Shown here in pieces: positions 4,964 through 12,801 of a stretch of DNA of 12,801 nt. The notes below the pieces were generated by a model. The model was not told the origin of the DNA and made no database searches. It saw only the letters and a program-made list of their open reading frames with translations. Where the stretch lies: positions 1-12,801 of IMG/VR virus record IMGVR_UViG_2563366845_000007; one strand, 5' to 3'. Source of the DNA: a virus (taxonomy: Duplodnaviria > Heunggongvirae > Uroviricota > Caudoviricetes). Every line of letters begins with the position of its first letter. The first letter of the stretch is position 1. Position numbers and translations under genes: made by a program.

Positions 4964-7900
4964 ATGGGTAAAGGCAGCAGTAAGGGGCATACCCCGCGCG
5001 AAGCGAAGGACAACCTGAAATCATCCCAGATGCTGAGCGTGATAGACGCCATCAGTGAAGGGCCGGTTGAAGGTCCGGTGGACGGATTAAAAAGTGTGCT
5101 GCTGAACAGTACGCCAGTGCTGGACAGTGAGGGGAATACCAATATCTCCGGCGTCACGGTGGTGTTCCGGGCAGGTGAGCAGGAGCAGACACCGCCGGAG
5201 GGGTTTGAATCCTCCGGCTCCGAGACGGTGCTGGGTACGGAAGTGAAATACGACACGCCGATCACCCGCACCATCACGTCGGCAAACATCGACCGTCTGC
5301 GCTTTACCTTCGGTGTGCAGGCACTGGTGGAAACCACCTCAAAGGGTGACAGGAATCCGTCGGAAGTCCGCCTGCTGGTTCAGATACAGCGTAATGGTGG
5401 CTGGGTGACGGAAAAAGACATCACCATTAAGGGCAAAACCACCTCACAGTATCTGGTCTCGGTGGTGGTGGATAACCTGCCGCCGCGCCCGTTTAATATC
5501 CGGATGCGCAGGATGACGCCGGACAGCACTACAGACCAGCTGCAGAACAAAACGCTCTGGTCGTCATACACCGAAATCATCGATGTGAAACAGTGCTACC
5601 CGAACACGGCACTGGTCGGCGTACAGGTGGACTCGGAGCAGTTCGGCAGCCAGCAGGTGAGTCGTAATTATCATCTTCGCGGGCGCATTCTGCAGGTGCC
5701 GTCGAACTATAACCCGCAGACGCGACAATACAGCGGTATCTGGGACGGAACGTTTAAACCGGCATACAGCAACAACATGGCCTGGTGTCTGTGGGATATG
5801 CTGACCCATCCGCGCTACGGCATGGGGAAACGTCTTGGTGCGGCGGATGTGGATAAATGGGCGCTGTATGTCATCGGCCAGTACTGCGACCAGTCGGTGC
5901 CGGACGGCTTTGGCGGCACGGAGCCGCGCATTACCTGTAATGCGTACCTGACCACACAGCGCAAGGCGTGGGATGTGCTCAGTGATTTCTGCTCGGCGAT
6001 GCGCTGTATGCCGGTATGGAACGGGCAGACGCTGACGTTCGTGCAGGACCGACCATCAGATAAGGTGTGGACCTATAACCGCAGTAATGTGGTGATGCCG
6101 GATGATGGCGCGCCGTTCCGCTACAGCTTCAGCGCCCTGAAGGACCGCCATAATGCCGTTGAGGTGAACTGGATTGACCCGGATAACGGCTGGGAGACGG
6201 CGACAGAGCTTGTGGAGGACACGCAGGCCATTCTCCGTTACGGTCGTAACGTCACGAAGATGGATGCCTTTGGCTGTACCAGCCGGGGGCAGGCACACCG
6301 CGCCGGGCTGTGGCTGATTAAAACGGAGCTGCTGGAGACGCAGACCGTGGATTTCAGCGTGGGTGCCGAAGGGCTTCGCCATGTGCCGGGTGATGTTATT
6401 GAAATCTGTGATGATGACTATGCCGGTATCAGCACCGGTGGTCGCGTGCTGGCGGTGAACAGCCAGACCCGGACGCTGACGCTCGACCGTGAAATCACGC
6501 TGCCATCCTCCGGTACCACACTGATAAGCCTGGTTGACGGAAGTGGGAATCCGGTCAGCGTGGAGGTTCAGTCCGTCACCGACGGCGTGAAGGTGAAAGT
6601 GAGCCGTGTTCCTGATGGTGTTGCTGAATACAGCGTGTGGGGGCTGAAGCTGCCGACGCTACGCCAGCGCCTGTTCCGCTGTGTGAGTATCCGTGAGAAC
6701 GACGACGGCACGTATGCCATCACTGCCGTGCAGCATGTACCGGAGAAAGAAGCCATCGTGGATAACGGGGCGCACTTTGACGGTGACCAGAGCGGCACGG
6801 TGAATGGTGTCACGCCGCCAGCAGTGCAGCATCTGACCGCCGAAGTCACCGCAGACAGCGGGGAATATCAGGTGCTGGCGCGATGGGACACGCCGAAGGT
6901 GGTGAAGGGTGTGAGCTTTATGCTTCGCCTGACTGTGGCAGCAGACGACGGCAGTGAGCGGCTGGTCAGCACGGCCCGGACGACGGAAACCACATACCGC
7001 TTCACGCAACTGGCGCTGGGGCGTTACACGCTGACGGTCCGGGCGGTAAATACCCGGGGACAGCAGGGCGATCCGGCATCGGTATCGTTCCGGATTGCCG
7101 CACCGGCAGCACCGTCGCGGATTGAGCTGACGCCGGGCTATTTTCAGATAACCGCCACGCCGCATCTTGCGATTTATGATCCGACGGTACAGTTTGAGTT
7201 CTGGTTCTCGGAAAAGCGGATTACCGATATCAGGCAGGTTGAAACCACAGCCCGCTATCTTGGTACGGCGCTGTACTGGATAGCCGCCAGTATCAATATC
7301 AAACCGGGCCATGATTATTATTTTTACATTCGCAGTGTGAACACCGTTGGCAAATCGGCATTTGTGGAGGCTGTTGGCCAGCCGAGTGATGATGCATCCG
7401 GCTATCTGGATTTTTTCAAAGGAGAGATAGGGAAAACCCATCTGGCTCAGGAGTTGTGGGCGCAGATTGATAACGGTCAGCTTGCGCCTGACCTGGCTGA
7501 AATCAGGACGTCCATTACGGATGTCAGCAATGAAATCACGCAGACCGTCAATAAGAAACTGGAAGACCAGAGTGCAGCGATCCAGCAGATACAGAAGGTT
7601 CAGGTTGATACAAATAATAACCTGAACAGCATGTGGGCTGTGAAGCTGCAGCAGATGCAGGACGGACGCCTTTATATCGCGGGTATTGGTGCCGGTATTG
7701 AGAATACTCCTGACGGTATGCAGAGTCAGGTGCTGCTGGCGGCGGACAGGATTGCGATGATTAATCCTGCGAATGGCAACACAAAGCCGATGTTTGTTGG
7801 TCAGGGCGATCAGATATTCATGAACGAAGTGTTCCTGAAATATCTGACGGCTCCCACCATTACCAGCGGCGGTAATCCTCCGGCATTTTCCCTGACACCG

Positions 7901-9136: not shown

Positions 9137-9164
9137 AGCCCGCCGGTTCAGGCGGGCTTTTTTG
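9137..9164 (+). terminator. Rho-independent terminator downstream of lom
   Basis: AGCCCGCC-GGTTCA-GGCGGGCT: perfect 8-bp stem, followed by TTTTTT. It ends only about 10 nt before the side tail fiber start codon. Confidence 0.7.
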
Positions 9165-9174
9165 TGGAGTGGAT

Positions 9175-11532
9175 ATGGCAGCAGTAAAAATCTCAGGTGT
9201 GCTGAAAGATGGTGCGGGAAAACCAATACAGAACTGCACTATTCAACTGAAGGCAAAGCGTAACAGCACCACGGTACTGGTGAACACGGTGGCTTCTGAA
9301 AATCCGGATGAAGCCGGGCGTTACAGCATGGACGTTGAGTATGGTCAGTACAGCGTCATCCTGCTGGTTGAAGGTTTTCTGCCTTCACATGCCGGGACCA
9401 TTACCGTCTATGAAGGCTCCAGACCAGGTACGCTGAATGATTTTCTCGGTGCCATGACGGAAGATGATGTCATGCCGGAGGCATTGCGTCGTTTTGAGGC
9501 AATGGTGGAAGAAGCGGCACGCAACGCCGAAGCCGCCTCTCAGAGCGCAGCGGCGGCAAAGAAATCCGAAACTGCAGCGGCATCATCGAAGAACGCGGCG
9601 AAAACCTCAGAAACGAATGCAGCTAATAGTGCACAGGCGGCAGCGACCTCACAGACTTCATCAGCAAACTCCGCGACAGCAGCCAAAAAATCAGAAACCA
9701 ACGCGAAAAATAGCGAGACAGCCGCAAAGACGAGCGAAACCAACGCGAAGTCCAGCCAGACGGCAGCGAAAACCAGCGAAACGAATGCCAAAGCCAGTGA
9801 AACTGCGGCGAAAAGCAGTCAGGATGCAGCAGCCGAAAGCGAGAGTGCTGCAGCTGGTTCTGCGACTTCAGCAGCTGGATCAGCAACTGCTGCGGCTAAC
9901 AGCCAGAAAGCCGCGAAGACGAGCGAAACTAACGCAAAGTCCAGCCAGACGGCAGCGAAGACCAGCGAAACGAATGCCAAAGCCAGCGAAACTGCGGCGA
10001 AAAACAGTCAGGATGCAGCAGCCCAAAGCGAGAGTGCCGCAGCTGGTTCTGCAACAGCGGCAGCTAATAGCCAAAAAGCTGCAAAAACCAGTGAAACTAA
10101 CGCAAAGACGAGTGAAACAAAAGCAGCAGCCAGCGAGACAGAAGCAACGTCAGCCGCAACAAGAGCAGAGAATGCAGCCCGGATTGCAGAAGATGCCGCT
10201 GATCCTGCTTCTGTCCCTCCGCTTCCTGATATCTGGCTACCCTTGAATGATTCTCTGGAAGCGATAACAGGGTATGCCCCGGGCTATAAAACAATAACCA
10301 TCGGCAGTGATGAAATAACAATGCCTGTTAATGGCATATGCCAATTTAGCCGGGCTTCATCTGCAACGTATATTGATAAGTCCGGGCATATTACCGTGGC
10401 AGGGAATAACGTTCCTCGTTTTGAAAAATATGGTTTGCTGATAGAGAATCAGCGAACAAACATGTTCGTAAATAGTTTTAATCCTGATGCCTGGAATAAA
10501 AGCGGTGGTATATCTGTAACATCATCAACAGATGAATTTGAGTTTAAATATGGACGTTTCACGGTAGGAAGCGATATAGCAGGAACGACAACAGGGCGAA
10601 ATATATGCACAGTTGCTGGTAACAAAGGCATAGATGTGACTGGCGATGATCAGTACAGTAAAGGTCCGTATGTTACCGCGTCGTTCAGGGTAAGAAGTGA
10701 TCTCAATGTTCGCGCACGTATCCGTTTTGAACGGTATAACTCGGAAGGATACACCTTCCTTTGCGACGCCTATTTGTCATTACAGACCCATGAACTACAA
10801 ATTACTGGTGGCAATGCCCAGCTATTAACAGCAAACTTTGAAATCGATCCAGGTAGTGGATGGATATATTTTCAGGCAACACTGAAATGTCTGCCAGAAT
10901 GGGGAATGGTTGGTACGCAGCTGCAAATTGCAGCCGACAGAGCTGTGGGGTCTTTTGCAACAGGTGACTGGATAGAAGTAACCACCCCGCAATTCGAGTA
11001 TGGTGCTTGTGCAACTTCCTTCATCATAACGACAACTGAGCCAGCGACTCGTGCATCAGATTTATGTAAATTTCCGCTGATGAAAAATATGTATACCATG
11101 CCTTTTACGTTCATGGTGGAAGTCCATAAAAACTGGTTTATTTCTCATAATGCGGCACCGCGTGTCATTGATTCAGAAAATCACCAGTCCGGAGGCCCAT
11201 TTATTATGGGGTTTGGTTCTTCTGGAACTATTAGTCAGGACGGTTATTCGTATTGCGATATAGGCGGGGCTAACCGGCGTGTATATGAGTCATGCGGAGT
11301 AAGAGATCTTGTTATGGGATTCAGGGTTAAGGCTGACGGCATGACATGCTCATTTGCAAATAAGCATATAAGCACAGAAACAAAAACAGTATGGAAATAT
11401 ATTCGTGAAGCTGCTGTGATTCGTATCGGGGGACAAACGACGACAGGATTACGACACCTTAATGGTCATATAAAAAACCTCCGTTTCTGGAACAGAGCAT
11501 TGTCAGATACGCAGCTTAAGGAATACGTATAA
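9175..11532 (+). CDS. Side tail fiber protein, mosaic: Stf-like N-terminal domain, Ala/Ser/Thr-rich repeat shaft, LamG/concanavalin-like C-terminal putative receptor-binding domain (785 aa from ATG 9175)
   Basis: The ORF-track frame opens at GTG 9169; ATG at 9175 gives MAAVKISGVLKDG..., resembling the lambda Stf N-terminus (from memory), with GGAGTGG just upstream. Residues around 120-330 are repeats of the AAKTSETNAKSSQTAAK type. The C-terminus ends HLNGHIKNLRFWNRALSDTQLKEYV, a signature typical of LamG/ConA-like jelly-roll lectin domains. The C-terminal half is clearly more AT-rich than the N-terminus. Confidence 0.85.
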   Translation: MAAVKISGVLKDGAGKPIQNCTIQLKAKRNSTTVLVNTVASENPDEAGRYSMDVEYGQYSVILLVEGFLPSHAGTITVYEGSRPGTLNDFLGAMTEDDVMPEALRRFEAMVEEAARNAEAASQSAAAAKKSETAAASSKNAAKTSETNAANSAQAAATSQTSSANSATAAKKSETNAKNSETAAKTSETNAKSSQTAAKTSETNAKASETAAKSSQDAAAESESAAAGSATSAAGSATAAANSQKAAKTSETNAKSSQTAAKTSETNAKASETAAKNSQDAAAQSESAAAGSATAAANSQKAAKTSETNAKTSETKAAASETEATSAATRAENAARIAEDAADPASVPPLPDIWLPLNDSLEAITGYAPGYKTITIGSDEITMPVNGICQFSRASSATYIDKSGHITVAGNNVPRFEKYGLLIENQRTNMFVNSFNPDAWNKSGGISVTSSTDEFEFKYGRFTVGSDIAGTTTGRNICTVAGNKGIDVTGDDQYSKGPYVTASFRVRSDLNVRARIRFERYNSEGYTFLCDAYLSLQTHELQITGGNAQLLTANFEIDPGSGWIYFQATLKCLPEWGMVGTQLQIAADRAVGSFATGDWIEVTTPQFEYGACATSFIITTTEPATRASDLCKFPLMKNMYTMPFTFMVEVHKNWFISHNAAPRVIDSENHQSGGPFIMGFGSSGTISQDGYSYCDIGGANRRVYESCGVRDLVMGFRVKADGMTCSFANKHISTETKTVWKYIREAAVIRIGGQTTTGLRHLNGHIKNLRFWNRALSDTQLKEYV
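9721..10080 (+). repeat. In-frame tandem duplication inside the fiber shaft (copy A about 9721-9909, copy B about 9910-10080)
   Basis: Copy A (gccgcaaagacgagcgaaaccaacgcgaag...) and copy B (gccgcgaagacgagcgaaactaacgcaaag...) align with roughly 10 mismatches over about 147 nt. Copy A carries an extra 21-nt internal mini-duplication (GSATSAAGSATAA vs GSATAA). Degenerate copies of the same unit flank both sides (9540-9720 and 10081-10140). Confidence 0.8.
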
Positions 11533-11801
11533 TGCGGGATATAACATTACGATTCGATAACAGAGAACAGTTTAACGCAATTGTATATGACAGTGGCCTG
11601 TTCAGTCTTGAAGAAGAAAACGGGGTTCTTGTTGATGTTATTGGCTGCATTATTGATTACGAGGAGCCAGAAAACGAAAGATGTACAGGCATTGATCGCG
11701 GTGGTTTTTTCGTAAACATGAGGATTGTTGATGGCAGTAAAAACATATCTTCTTTAATGCCTTTCATTACGACAGATCAGCATGTAAGGACATGGGCTTA
11801 A
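11532..11801 (+). CDS. Hypothetical small acidic protein, 89 aa, translationally coupled to the fiber gene
   Basis: The ATG overlaps the fiber stop by 1 nt (TAATG at 11530-11534), with AAGGAA 9 nt upstream. No recognisable motif; acidic (many D/E) and AT-rich. Its position suggests a fiber accessory or assembly factor, but this is unproven. Confidence 0.55.
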   Translation: MRDITLRFDNREQFNAIVYDSGLFSLEEENGVLVDVIGCIIDYEEPENERCTGIDRGGFFVNMRIVDGSKNISSLMPFITTDQHVRTWA

Positions 11802-11813
11802 TGGAGTAAGACA

Positions 11814-12497
11814 ATGGTTACAAAAACAGTAATTCCGGGAGACATCACCACGCTAAAGGGAGATATTTCCTCAATTAACGGAAAAGTATCAACGCTTCAG
11901 ACTGAGATGACCAGTGCAAAGCAGGATATCAGCTCCAGATACACAAAAACTGAAGTTGATAATAAGCTGAAAAACAAAGTGGAAGTGAACGATCTGGAAA
12001 GTGGTCGTTATGGTGGAGATTTTTACCCGCTGACTGGCCGTGAAGCGTTTTATTTATGGAATTTGGGCACGACTACAGCGGCGGCAAACCTTTATCTTAA
12101 TCCTGACCCTGCAATTTCGTCTGTACTGCGGTCAACATCGTCTATTCGCTATAAACATTCAGTAGAGACGATAGATTCAGAGCACGCCGCTCTCATTTTC
12201 AGGATGCGCCCTGTGTGGTACAGGTCGCAATGCGAAAATGACAGGCATGACTGGGGATTCTACGGATTGATTGCCGAGGAAGTAGGAGAAATTGCCCCTC
12301 AGTTTGTACACTGGCGACCAGCTAACGAAGATGATGCTCCTGAAGCTATTTCCAGCAATGGCCTTGTTGCCGAAGGTGTAATGTACGAACGTCTGGTTGT
12401 TCCACTGATTCACCATATCCAGAAACTGACTGAAAGAGTTGATGAACTTGAGTCAGAATTGAAGTTGTTATCAACTTCCCGAAGCGATATCGGATAA
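11814..12497 (+). CDS. Hypothetical protein, 227 aa: N-terminal coiled-coil-like segment plus C-terminal domain resembling the peptidase S74 intramolecular chaperone of tail fibers/endosialidases
   Basis: RBS GGAG 7 nt upstream of the ATG. Residues 105-119 (RSTSSIRYKHSVETI) fit the S-x-x-R-x-K autoproteolysis motif (putative Ser109/Lys114). Downstream WGFYGLIAEEVGEIAPQFV and a C-terminal amphipathic helix (VVPLIHHIQKLTERVDELESELKLL) match the conserved layout of that domain. The assignment is from motif recall, not a search. Confidence 0.65.
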   Translation: MVTKTVIPGDITTLKGDISSINGKVSTLQTEMTSAKQDISSRYTKTEVDNKLKNKVEVNDLESGRYGGDFYPLTGREAFYLWNLGTTTAAANLYLNPDPAISSVLRSTSSIRYKHSVETIDSEHAALIFRMRPVWYRSQCENDRHDWGFYGLIAEEVGEIAPQFVHWRPANEDDAPEAISSNGLVAEGVMYERLVVPLIHHIQKLTERVDELESELKLLSTSRSDIG

Positions 12498-12507
12498 AGG
12501 AGGAGTA

Positions 12508-12801
12508 ATGGATATAACACCTTTTCTTCATGCGCTTTGTGCTGTGGCTGCGCAGGTACTGATTGGCCTTTTTACCGGAAACTGGGCTTACGGTGCGATA
12601 GCCGGTTGTACGTTCTTCATTGCGCGTGAACACACCCAGGCAGAATATCGCTGGATTGAAATGTTCGGGCATGGCAAGCGAATGAATATGCCGTGGTGGG
12701 GCGGTTTTGATCCGCGCGCATGGGATGTGGCAAGCCTGATGGATTTTGCTGTGCCGGTGGTGGCGTGTCTGCTGGTCTGGCTGTTGGTTAATCGTGGGTG
12801 A
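12508..12801 (+). CDS. Hypothetical small membrane protein, 97 aa, two predicted hydrophobic segments
   Basis: Strong RBS AAGGAGG 5 nt upstream of the ATG. Hydrophobic stretches LHALCAVAAQVLIGLFTGNWAYGAIAGCTFFIA and VASLMDFAVPVVACLLVWLLV flank a polar loop (REHTQAEYRWIEMFGHGKRMNMPWWGGFDPRAWD). No lipobox. The stop codon is the last three bases of the window. Confidence 0.6.
   Translation: MDITPFLHALCAVAAQVLIGLFTGNWAYGAIAGCTFFIAREHTQAEYRWIEMFGHGKRMNMPWWGGFDPRAWDVASLMDFAVPVVACLLVWLLVNRG

Follow-up and report, generated by a model that had tools for sequence, protein, structure and literature searches.

The stretch of DNA analyzed here, referred to as the window (12,801 nucleotides; IMG/VR virus record IMGVR_UViG_2563366845_000007), represents the end of a lambda-like prophage that carries its tail genes. 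[quoted passage not shown] The genome of Escherichia coli strain 746 (NZ_CP023353) is 100% identical to the window over the tested stretch, and host genes start soon after the 97-aa gene in that strain. A Tfa fragment is found just outside the window in the source genome, which shows that displaced fiber pieces do collect in this region.

Stf (9169..11532) is the first gene of what we describe below as a three-gene cassette and is 787 aa long if translated from the GTG at 9169 or 785 aa from the ATG at 9175. Its plan is that of an N-terminal tail-attachment domain, an Ala-rich repeat shaft, and a C-terminal tip resembling a head-spike-fiber. Residues 5 to 134 match PF08400 (phage_tail_N; E = 8e-66), residues 424 to 629 match the NCBIfam model GTA_spike_fiber (GTA head-spike-fiber domain), and the full length of the protein matches phrog_1419, annotated as “tail protein.” The earlier note on this DNA, which was made by a model from the letters alone, had described the tip of this fiber as LamG-like. 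Pfam LamG has no match in the Stf of the window, and the GTA head-spike-fiber domain is found instead; however, Laminin_G_3 gives a subthreshold match (E = 7e-4) to a 403-aa C-terminal fiber ORF from APEC strain E18055 (WP_064468989.1), which is also the PGAP accession at the Stf locus of the genome that matches the window at 100%. A LamG-like character of the tip is thus doubtful.

The second gene encodes a protein of 89 aa (11532..11801), and its start overlaps the Stf stop codon (ATGA). It is followed after a 12-nt gap by the 227-aa gene and then, after a further gap of 10 nt, by the gene for a small hydrophobic protein of 97 aa (12508..12801; phrog_1443). No promoter-like or terminator-like sites were found downstream of position 11,497, a region that includes the Stf/89-aa junction, the 227-aa gene, and the 97-aa gene. 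By profile similarity (Pfam, PHROGs, and NCBIfam), none of the 227-aa, 89-aa, and 97-aa proteins matches the lambda Tfa or Caudo_TAP families. The same three proteins gave no PADLOC matches, and a role in antiphage defense was dropped as a candidate.

The 97-aa protein, named “putative membrane protein” in phage 21, is a neighbor and not a part of the cassette, since its gene is missing from the cassettes of Drexlerviridae and is present after the tail fiber genes of phage 21 and of many lambda-like phages, where there is no S74 gene.

Layout of the 227-aa protein

The third gene (11814..12497) is an ATG-initiated ORF encoding a stand-alone protein of 25.5 kDa with a peptidase S74 domain. A GGAG ribosome-binding site is seen directly in the sequence at 11803..11806, 7 nt before the ATG, so that the claim of the earlier note that this is a separate ORF with its own ribosome-binding site is borne out. 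Two ORFs on the minus strand (12177 to 12416 and 12346 to 12672) overlap the gene and were dismissed, as the profile matches and the purifying selection belong to the plus-strand frame.

Four segments can be distinguished in the protein. The first is a conserved N-terminal anchor (residues 1 to 15, MVTKTVIPGDITTLK; 11814..11858), defined by homolog conservation, in which M1, T3, T5, I7, P8, D10, I11, T12, L14, and K15 do not vary across eight diverse homologs. It runs into a heptad-repeat segment, a predicted coiled coil (residues ~7 to 53; 11832..11972), with five clean heptads at residues ~7 to 41, in which the core positions are hydrophobic in 9 of 10 cases. In the AF2 model, helices occupy residues 12 to 42 and 45 to 53. 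The segment weakly matches the coiled coil of the P22-type tail needle gp26 (4lin), and its length differs among homologs via insertions and deletions of repeat units.

Residues 54 to 108 (11973..12137) form a short precleavage body or tip, delimited by conservation and by fused homologs, that would make up the distal end once the protein is mature. This segment has low confidence in the AF2 monomer model. T86, T87, A91, N92, R106, S107, and T108 vary hardly or not at all in a 72-sequence alignment, and an exhaustive homolog search places the start of the family-wide conserved unit at residue ~75 to 85. A stretch homologous to residues 54 to 108 directly precedes the S74 domain in two long fibers described below (P0116 and P0122). 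About 108 residues of coiled-coil-like sequence had been claimed to precede the S74 domain; this description fits residues ~7 to 53 but not residues 54 to 108, which are not coiled-coil-like as judged by heptads and by the AF2 model. Pfam and the AF2 model reveal no recognizable receptor-binding domain between the coiled coil and the cleavage site within the mature part of 108 residues.

The intramolecular chaperone domain

The remainder of the protein (residues 109 to 227; 12138..12494; 13.7 kDa) is an S74-family intramolecular chaperone (IMC) domain, which ends in a heptad helix at residues 191 to 226. The Pfam model PF13884 (Peptidase_S74) matches residues 109 to 165 over model positions 1 to 57 of 58 (E = 9.7e-6; 26.2 bits, with a gathering cutoff of 22 bits) and begins exactly at Ser109. 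The motif SSIRYK, which had been singled out from the sequence, corresponds to residues 109 to 114 (codons 12138 to 12155), and the GFYGLIAEEV block corresponds to residues 148 to 157, both in agreement with the positions first given for them. A site of autoproteolysis is predicted at Thr108-Ser109 together with Lys114 (12135..12155; codons 12135 to 12140 and 12153 to 12155), based upon conservation and upon the spacing in T5 pb1. In T5 pb1, the Thr1263-Ser1264 bond is cut, with Ser1264 activated by Lys1269 (PMC4690869), and the 227-aa protein has the same three residues at identical spacing (+5). Thr108 and Lys114 are invariant in the 72-sequence alignment, and Ser109 is conserved in at least 90% of the sequences.

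The AF2 model, which was built on an alignment, has a pLDDT above 90 over residues ~110 to 227. The top Foldseek match for this model is the ICA domain of MyRF (7dc3; E = 2.7e-5; 26% identity), followed by 3gw6 and 3gud at weaker E-values, and the nearest solved sequence in the PDB is residues 952 to 1069 of the 1076 residues of 8hqz_d, a chain named “L-shaped tail fiber assembly.” The protein thus has the profile match, the Ser/Lys pair at +5 with Thr at −1, and the fold of the S74/IMC family (PF13884; IPR030392), in which a long C-terminal helix follows a mixed alpha/beta unit. The domain also lies at the extreme C terminus, preceded by heptad repeats and a conserved precleavage segment, and homologous S74 modules terminate fibers of 539 to 1243 aa. 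The original proposal of an S74-like chaperone domain with a Ser109/Lys114 dyad is therefore confirmed, as the PF13884 match, the motif, its conservation, and the fold all agree, to a degree far above chance: the ORF carries an S74 IMC domain with a T5-type cleavage motif and a confidently predicted IMC fold.

S74 domains are cis-acting modules that trimerize, template the preceding segment, and then cleave themselves off, as established for K1F endosialidase, T5 pb1, and MyRF (PMC4690869). By homology with these proteins and from its heptads, the 227-aa protein probably forms a homotrimer, and it is predicted to cleave itself in the same way.

Conservation and selection

All 85 copies of the gene collected from phage genomes and viral contigs (85/85) are intact ORFs of 227 to 234 aa that start with ATG. 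Compared with homologs from virulent Drexlerviridae, dN/dS is 0.16 to 0.21 with dS saturated, and the N-terminal 108 residues and the chaperone domain give similar values. The gene is live and not decaying, since it is under purifying selection and is conserved between temperate and virulent phages.

The gene is also widespread, being found in 810 of 5,426 complete E. coli genomes (about 15%), and an exhaustive search of 1.8 billion representatives returned 3,398 relatives of the protein at an E-value of ≤1e-3. PGAP labels the product as “tail fiber domain-containing protein,” and “chaperone of endosialidase” and “hypothetical protein” are other labels in current use. Phage Bas05 of the BASEL collection is among several virulent Drexlerviridae that carry the gene.

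A three-gene cassette with an exchangeable third slot

The order of a fiber (~595 to 810 aa), a protein of ~90 aa, and an S74 protein is found in the temperate lambdoid phages PhiR55_1 and PhiR49_1. The same cassette is found in virulent phages of the genera Warwickvirus and Hanrivervirus, namely, PeterMerian/Bas05, SECphi27, SLUR29, AV105, and phiE31-2. The ~90-aa protein is homologous throughout these cassettes and its motifs are invariant, despite an identity of only ~32%, and its predicted fold offers no clue to a docking partner. Overall, these comparisons show a conserved three-gene unit common to temperate and virulent phages.

However, the three genes do not vary together. Between the window and prophages of the PhiR49_1 type, which are commoner than those of the window type, the first 300 residues of Stf are 84 to 98% identical, but its C-terminal part is only 26 to 62% identical. 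In this comparison, the ~90-aa protein is ~32% identical, whereas the S74 protein is 91 to 94% identical; overall, the latter keeps 91 to 98% identity where the fiber tip and the ~90-aa protein diverge this far. Nucleotide similarity to the window sets in ~38 nt inside the S74 gene in the majority of E. coli genomes, which marks a recombination breakpoint. It follows that the fiber tip moves as one block with the ~90-aa gene and with the first dozen codons of the third gene, the rest of which forms an independent module.

A survey of loci seeded on the ~90-aa gene reveals several alleles in the third slot. Those of 227/234, 346/363, and 576/583 aa all have S74 domains, and the 346/363-aa and 576/583-aa alleles have different bodies and divergent S74 domains of their own, as detected by Pfam. 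(A homemade HMM built from alignment A1 did not detect the S74 domains of the 346- to 583-aa alleles; this result was discarded because Pfam detected them.) The alleles of 330 and 340 aa lack S74, and both contain Gp34_trimer, a T4-like fiber domain; the 330-aa allele contains gp37_trimer and Gp53-like_C in addition. The 227/234-aa, 330/340-aa, 346/363-aa, and 576/583-aa alleles all share the start M[VAT]T.T.IP.DI..LK, so that a common N-terminal attachment segment is combined with differing distal bodies, which is the pattern of distal or branch subunits of fibers. Alleles of Stf and of the 89-aa protein that are 98 to 100% identical to those of the window are found more commonly with the 346/363-aa form than with the 227-aa form in the sample of viral contigs.

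The slot is empty in two loci and deleted in two others (L122, L124, L114, and L116), which indicates that prophages can, in some contexts at least, do without the gene; where the slot is empty, the 97-aa gene lies directly behind the ~90-aa gene. The fiber tips that precede S74-less or empty slots are 41 to 47% identical to the Stf tip of the window over ~460 to 500 residues. Since one anchor is common to several distinct alleles, the slot itself appears to be functional. On sequence evidence, then, the third slot is exchangeable and defined by the anchor, and the 227-aa form is its shortest allele. Of all the results, this exchange in the third slot tells us the most.

Fused relatives and probable origin

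The earlier note had asked whether the ORF is fused to a fiber elsewhere, and this proves to be the case. Residues ~40 to 227 recur at 51 to 61% identity as the extreme C terminus of fibers of 539 to 1243 aa, and a module of ~190 to 235 residues is the covalent C terminus of long side tail fibers in other prophages. Among these are the Stf of a Citrobacter freundii prophage (WP_418224550; P0116; 735 aa), P0118 (958 aa), and P0122 (1243 aa); two of the long fibers with the module begin with the PF08400 tail-attachment domain, as does the Stf of the window. Fused S74 or IMC domains are also known in Drexlerviridae, in FibB of SH6/T1 at the equivalent locus and in the fiber gp28 of Cronobacter phages.

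The first ~350 residues of P0116 are 61% identical to the Stf of the window, and its last ~235 residues are collinear with the entire 227-aa protein (E = 9e-75), with the TKTVIPGDI at the start of the latter aligning with an internal fiber motif of P0116, TKDSIPGVN. What is a single polypeptide in P0116 is divided between two genes in the window, and the 227-aa gene likely originated by fission or displacement of the C terminus of a fiber.

Proposed role of the 227-aa protein

We propose, with a probability of roughly 0.55, that the 227-aa protein is a cis-chaperoned and probably trimeric mini-fiber that docks via its N terminus on the side-fiber complex. We read it as a self-chaperoned mini-fiber because it has a fiber-like N-terminal part of its own that is under selection, an intact cleavage motif, and siblings that are fiber proteins. 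Action in cis rather than in trans is favored because residues ~40 to 227 recur covalently in long fibers.

According to this model, the IMC domain (residues 109 to 227) would gather three chains, as expected from its homology with K1F endosialidase, T5 pb1, and MyRF, and would template the short N-terminal part, which consists of the anchor (residues 1 to 15), the coiled coil (residues ~7 to 53), and a small tip (residues 54 to 108). It would then excise itself at Thr108-Ser109 using Lys114, leaving a trimeric stub of ~11.8 kDa (~108 residues) per chain. The stub may dock by its conserved N terminus onto a complex of Stf and the ~90-aa protein, so that the slot would hold a second, exchangeable distal or branch module, with the 227-aa form as its shortest allele. 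We infer both the presence of the protein in the virion and its docking partner. In the literature, we found no proteomic, genetic, or structural data for the 227-aa protein or its homologs in Drexlerviridae, and no proteomics or structure for any phage that bears the cassette. Of the roles suggested in the earlier note, that of a detachable fiber tip or adaptor module is therefore the one favored here, as the slot holds interchangeable fiber proteins with one anchor.

A trimer docked on the side fiber might also serve as a blank plug for the docking site, or its uncleaved IMC domain as a transient mask that covers the fiber up to the time of release, in which case the protein would be a cap or regulator and not an adhesin. 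The short allele, in which no receptor-binding body is recognizable between the coiled coil and the cleavage site, would suit such a function, as would the fact that longer alleles, whose fiber domains are bona fide, occupy the same slot. For Alteromonas phages, transient caps formed by chaperones on the fiber tips have reportedly been described. However, the ~65 residues that precede the cleavage site have homologs in the fused relatives that make up the extreme end of the mature fiber, and direct evidence for capping was not found. The equivalent region of T5 pb1 is the receptor-binding end (PMC4690869). We therefore regard a capping function as unlikely.

By itself or together with the ~90-aa protein, the S74 protein could instead be a chaperone that acts in trans on the folding or trimerization of Stf, replacing Tfa and remaining outside the virion. 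Such a role had been among those first suggested for the ORF. The 227-aa gene sits where lambdoid phages normally encode Tfa, no Caudo_TAP or Tfa-like family matched any gene of the cassette, the mature part is very small, and the genes appear to be tightly cotranscribed, as read from their junctions and the absence of promoter-like and terminator-like sites. The authors of the BASEL collection also label the Bas05 homolog as “putative lateral tail fiber chaperone,” although this is an annotation only. A chaperone specific to the tip should covary with it, whereas the S74 protein stays nearly constant where the fiber tip and the ~90-aa protein diverge. Conversely, nearly identical Stf and ~90-aa genes are paired more often with the different 346-aa allele, and homologous tips accompany an S74-less allele or an empty slot. 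Furthermore, all known S74 domains act on their own polypeptide, and the N-terminal 108 residues, which are fiber-like, are under purifying selection equal to that on the chaperone domain. Given this independent assortment, the S74-less and empty slots, and the way in which the family is known to act, a trans-acting chaperone is decidedly improbable.

It is very unlikely that the ORF is a functionless leftover, a C-terminal piece of an ancestral Stf that was left stranded when a new head-spike-fiber tip and ~90-aa gene recombined in and that has been kept only by hitchhiking: the collinearity with P0116 (including the internal position of the motif that aligns with the start of the 227-aa protein), the empty or deleted slots, and the displaced Tfa piece nearby would all fit, but every copy is intact with an ATG start and a GGAG site, dN/dS is low, the catalytic residues vary hardly or not at all, the gene is kept in the compact genomes of virulent Drexlerviridae, and the anchor is shared by several distinct alleles. 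The suggestion that the ORF is a remnant of a displaced fiber gene thus holds for its ancestry, in view of the collinearity with the C terminus of the Citrobacter Stf, but not for a loss of function, in view of the purifying selection.

Implications for fiber modularity

Host recognition begins with the side or lateral tail fibers, and efforts to engineer host range are aimed mainly at them. The S74 family, fibers with a C-terminal IMC domain, and multiprotein lateral fibers are already known, and databases contain many short S74 proteins. What is new here is the recognition, in both temperate and virulent phages, of a conserved cassette of three genes whose third slot is exchangeable and defined by an anchor, with the 227-aa ORF as the minimal allele of that slot. 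This is an example of fiber modularity and not a new kind of system. To view the ORF as an allele of an exchangeable, anchor-bearing fiber gene and not as an accessory chaperone would change the annotation of the locus and suggests a reusable short docking tag. If the 227-aa form is merely a minimal stub, the practical consequence is small.

More tentatively, and with considerable doubt on our part, the cassette might be a plug-and-play branching system in which the Stf tip and the ~90-aa protein form a universal socket for any protein that bears the anchor. If this is true, lambdoid and T1-like phages would gain a second, freely swappable receptor-binding module, and the 227-aa form would be the minimal self-cleaving insert, with a tip that is exposed only once the chaperone leaves. 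The ~90-aa protein would then be a fiber adaptor of a new class, and the anchor M-x-T-x-T-x-I-P-x-D-I-x-x-L-K could be a transferable tag for engineering of fiber specificity.

Comparison with known systems

K1F endosialidase (3gw6), T5 pb1, the 8hqz chain, and the neck appendage of GA-1 (3gud) belong to the same Pfam family as the 227-aa protein. These phage IMC fibers and tailspikes share with it the Thr-Ser...Lys residues (+5), the predicted fold with its terminal helix, and the C-terminal place behind a fiber-like segment. However, only 108 residues precede the chaperone in the 227-aa protein, compared with hundreds to over a thousand in the known proteins. It also lacks a domain by which it could itself attach to the tail or baseplate, and its gene comes third, behind that of another fiber that is complete. 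Similarly, the module is covalently fused in P0116, P0118, and P0122, whereas in the window it stands as a gene apart that has a start, a ribosome-binding site, and a conserved anchor of its own; a different tip and the ~90-aa gene lie between it and the Stf shaft.

Lateral fibers may consist of one polypeptide or of two or more separate proteins (PMC8594841; PMC11990801). The multiprotein or branched lateral fibers of siphophages likewise have a distal protein with a conserved N terminus and an exchangeable body, encoded downstream of the proximal fiber, and some of these proteins have an IMC domain. The mature subunit of the 227-aa protein would be far smaller than those of the characterized lateral fibers, and its attachment is a proposal from sequence comparison.

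Lambda Tfa (Caudo_TAP) occupies the same place, directly downstream of stf, but has no sequence or profile similarity to the 227-aa protein, and Tfa works in trans, unlike the cis-acting S74 domains. The best structural match of the 227-aa model, MyRF ICA (7dc3), is a eukaryotic relative of the phage IMC domains. Both are thought to trimerize and to free their N-terminal cargo by self-cleavage, although the cargo of MyRF is a membrane-tethered transcription factor and that of the 227-aa protein would be a phage fiber stub.

The fiber gene and transcription into the cassette

In the PGAP annotation of both E. coli 746, the source genome (locus L125, 1644-4001), and APEC E18055, the side tail fiber gene (stf) appears as two features: a truncated pseudogene and, apart from it, a "head spike fiber domain" protein of 403 aa. 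The fiber in the window is a single unbroken open reading frame (ORF) of 787 aa (9169-11532); the Ala/Ser/Thr-rich repeats of the shaft probably led the annotation astray. Read in another frame or on the complementary strand, the near-perfect repeats of this shaft (approximately 9500-10250; AAKTSETNAKSSQT...) also yield long spurious ORFs, one of which spans 9464-10246 on the + strand and has 260 aa.

A strong terminator-like hairpin lies between lom and stf (9137-9158), with eight pairs, seven of which are G-C, followed by a T-run. Thus, the fiber cassette may depend upon read-through or upon a promoter of its own that has not been recognized.

The middle and third genes of the cassette

The middle position of the cassette is in every case, 3' of the fiber and 5' of the third gene, taken by a protein of ~90 aa belonging to phrog_1361 (11532-11801 in the window), a family with no known relatives. 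Its invariant motifs are M.D.TL.F, DVIG, G.FVN.RI, and R.W, and the predicted fold is beta-alpha-beta-beta-alpha-beta. The protein covaries with the fiber tip and may be the tip-specific chaperone, or else an adaptor.

The S74 gene of the Warwickvirus Escherichia phage AV105 (L087, 3850-4588) is annotated as two ORFs (87 aa and 108 aa). Its tblastn match is likewise in two pieces, which points to a frameshift or an error in sequencing; elsewhere the gene is conserved.

The 3' neighbor and adjacent gene fragments

The 97-aa hydrophobic protein encoded 3' of the cassette (phrog_1443; 12508-12801) is labeled a "putative membrane protein" in phage 21; its gene is found 3' of the tail-fiber genes in that phage and in dozens of lambda-like phages, and it moves independently of the cassette. 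PADLOC returned no match for this protein, which could be a moron, e.g., for superinfection exclusion. Where the third slot of the cassette is empty, the 97-aa gene directly follows the ~90-aa gene. In two comparison loci, L114 and L116 (~5270-5420), a deletion took nearly all of the third-slot gene and left, directly 5' of the 97-aa gene, its C-terminal end (...ALEEENAELRQRLSAIEAALASE), a close match to the end of the 346-aa allele.

Just past the 3' end of the window, E. coli 746 carries a fragment of a tail fiber assembly (Tfa) gene that lacks the N terminus (L125, 5290-5406); it lies directly 3' of the 97-aa gene and 5' of host genes. This fragment is consistent with displacement of an older Stf-Tfa module by the present cassette.
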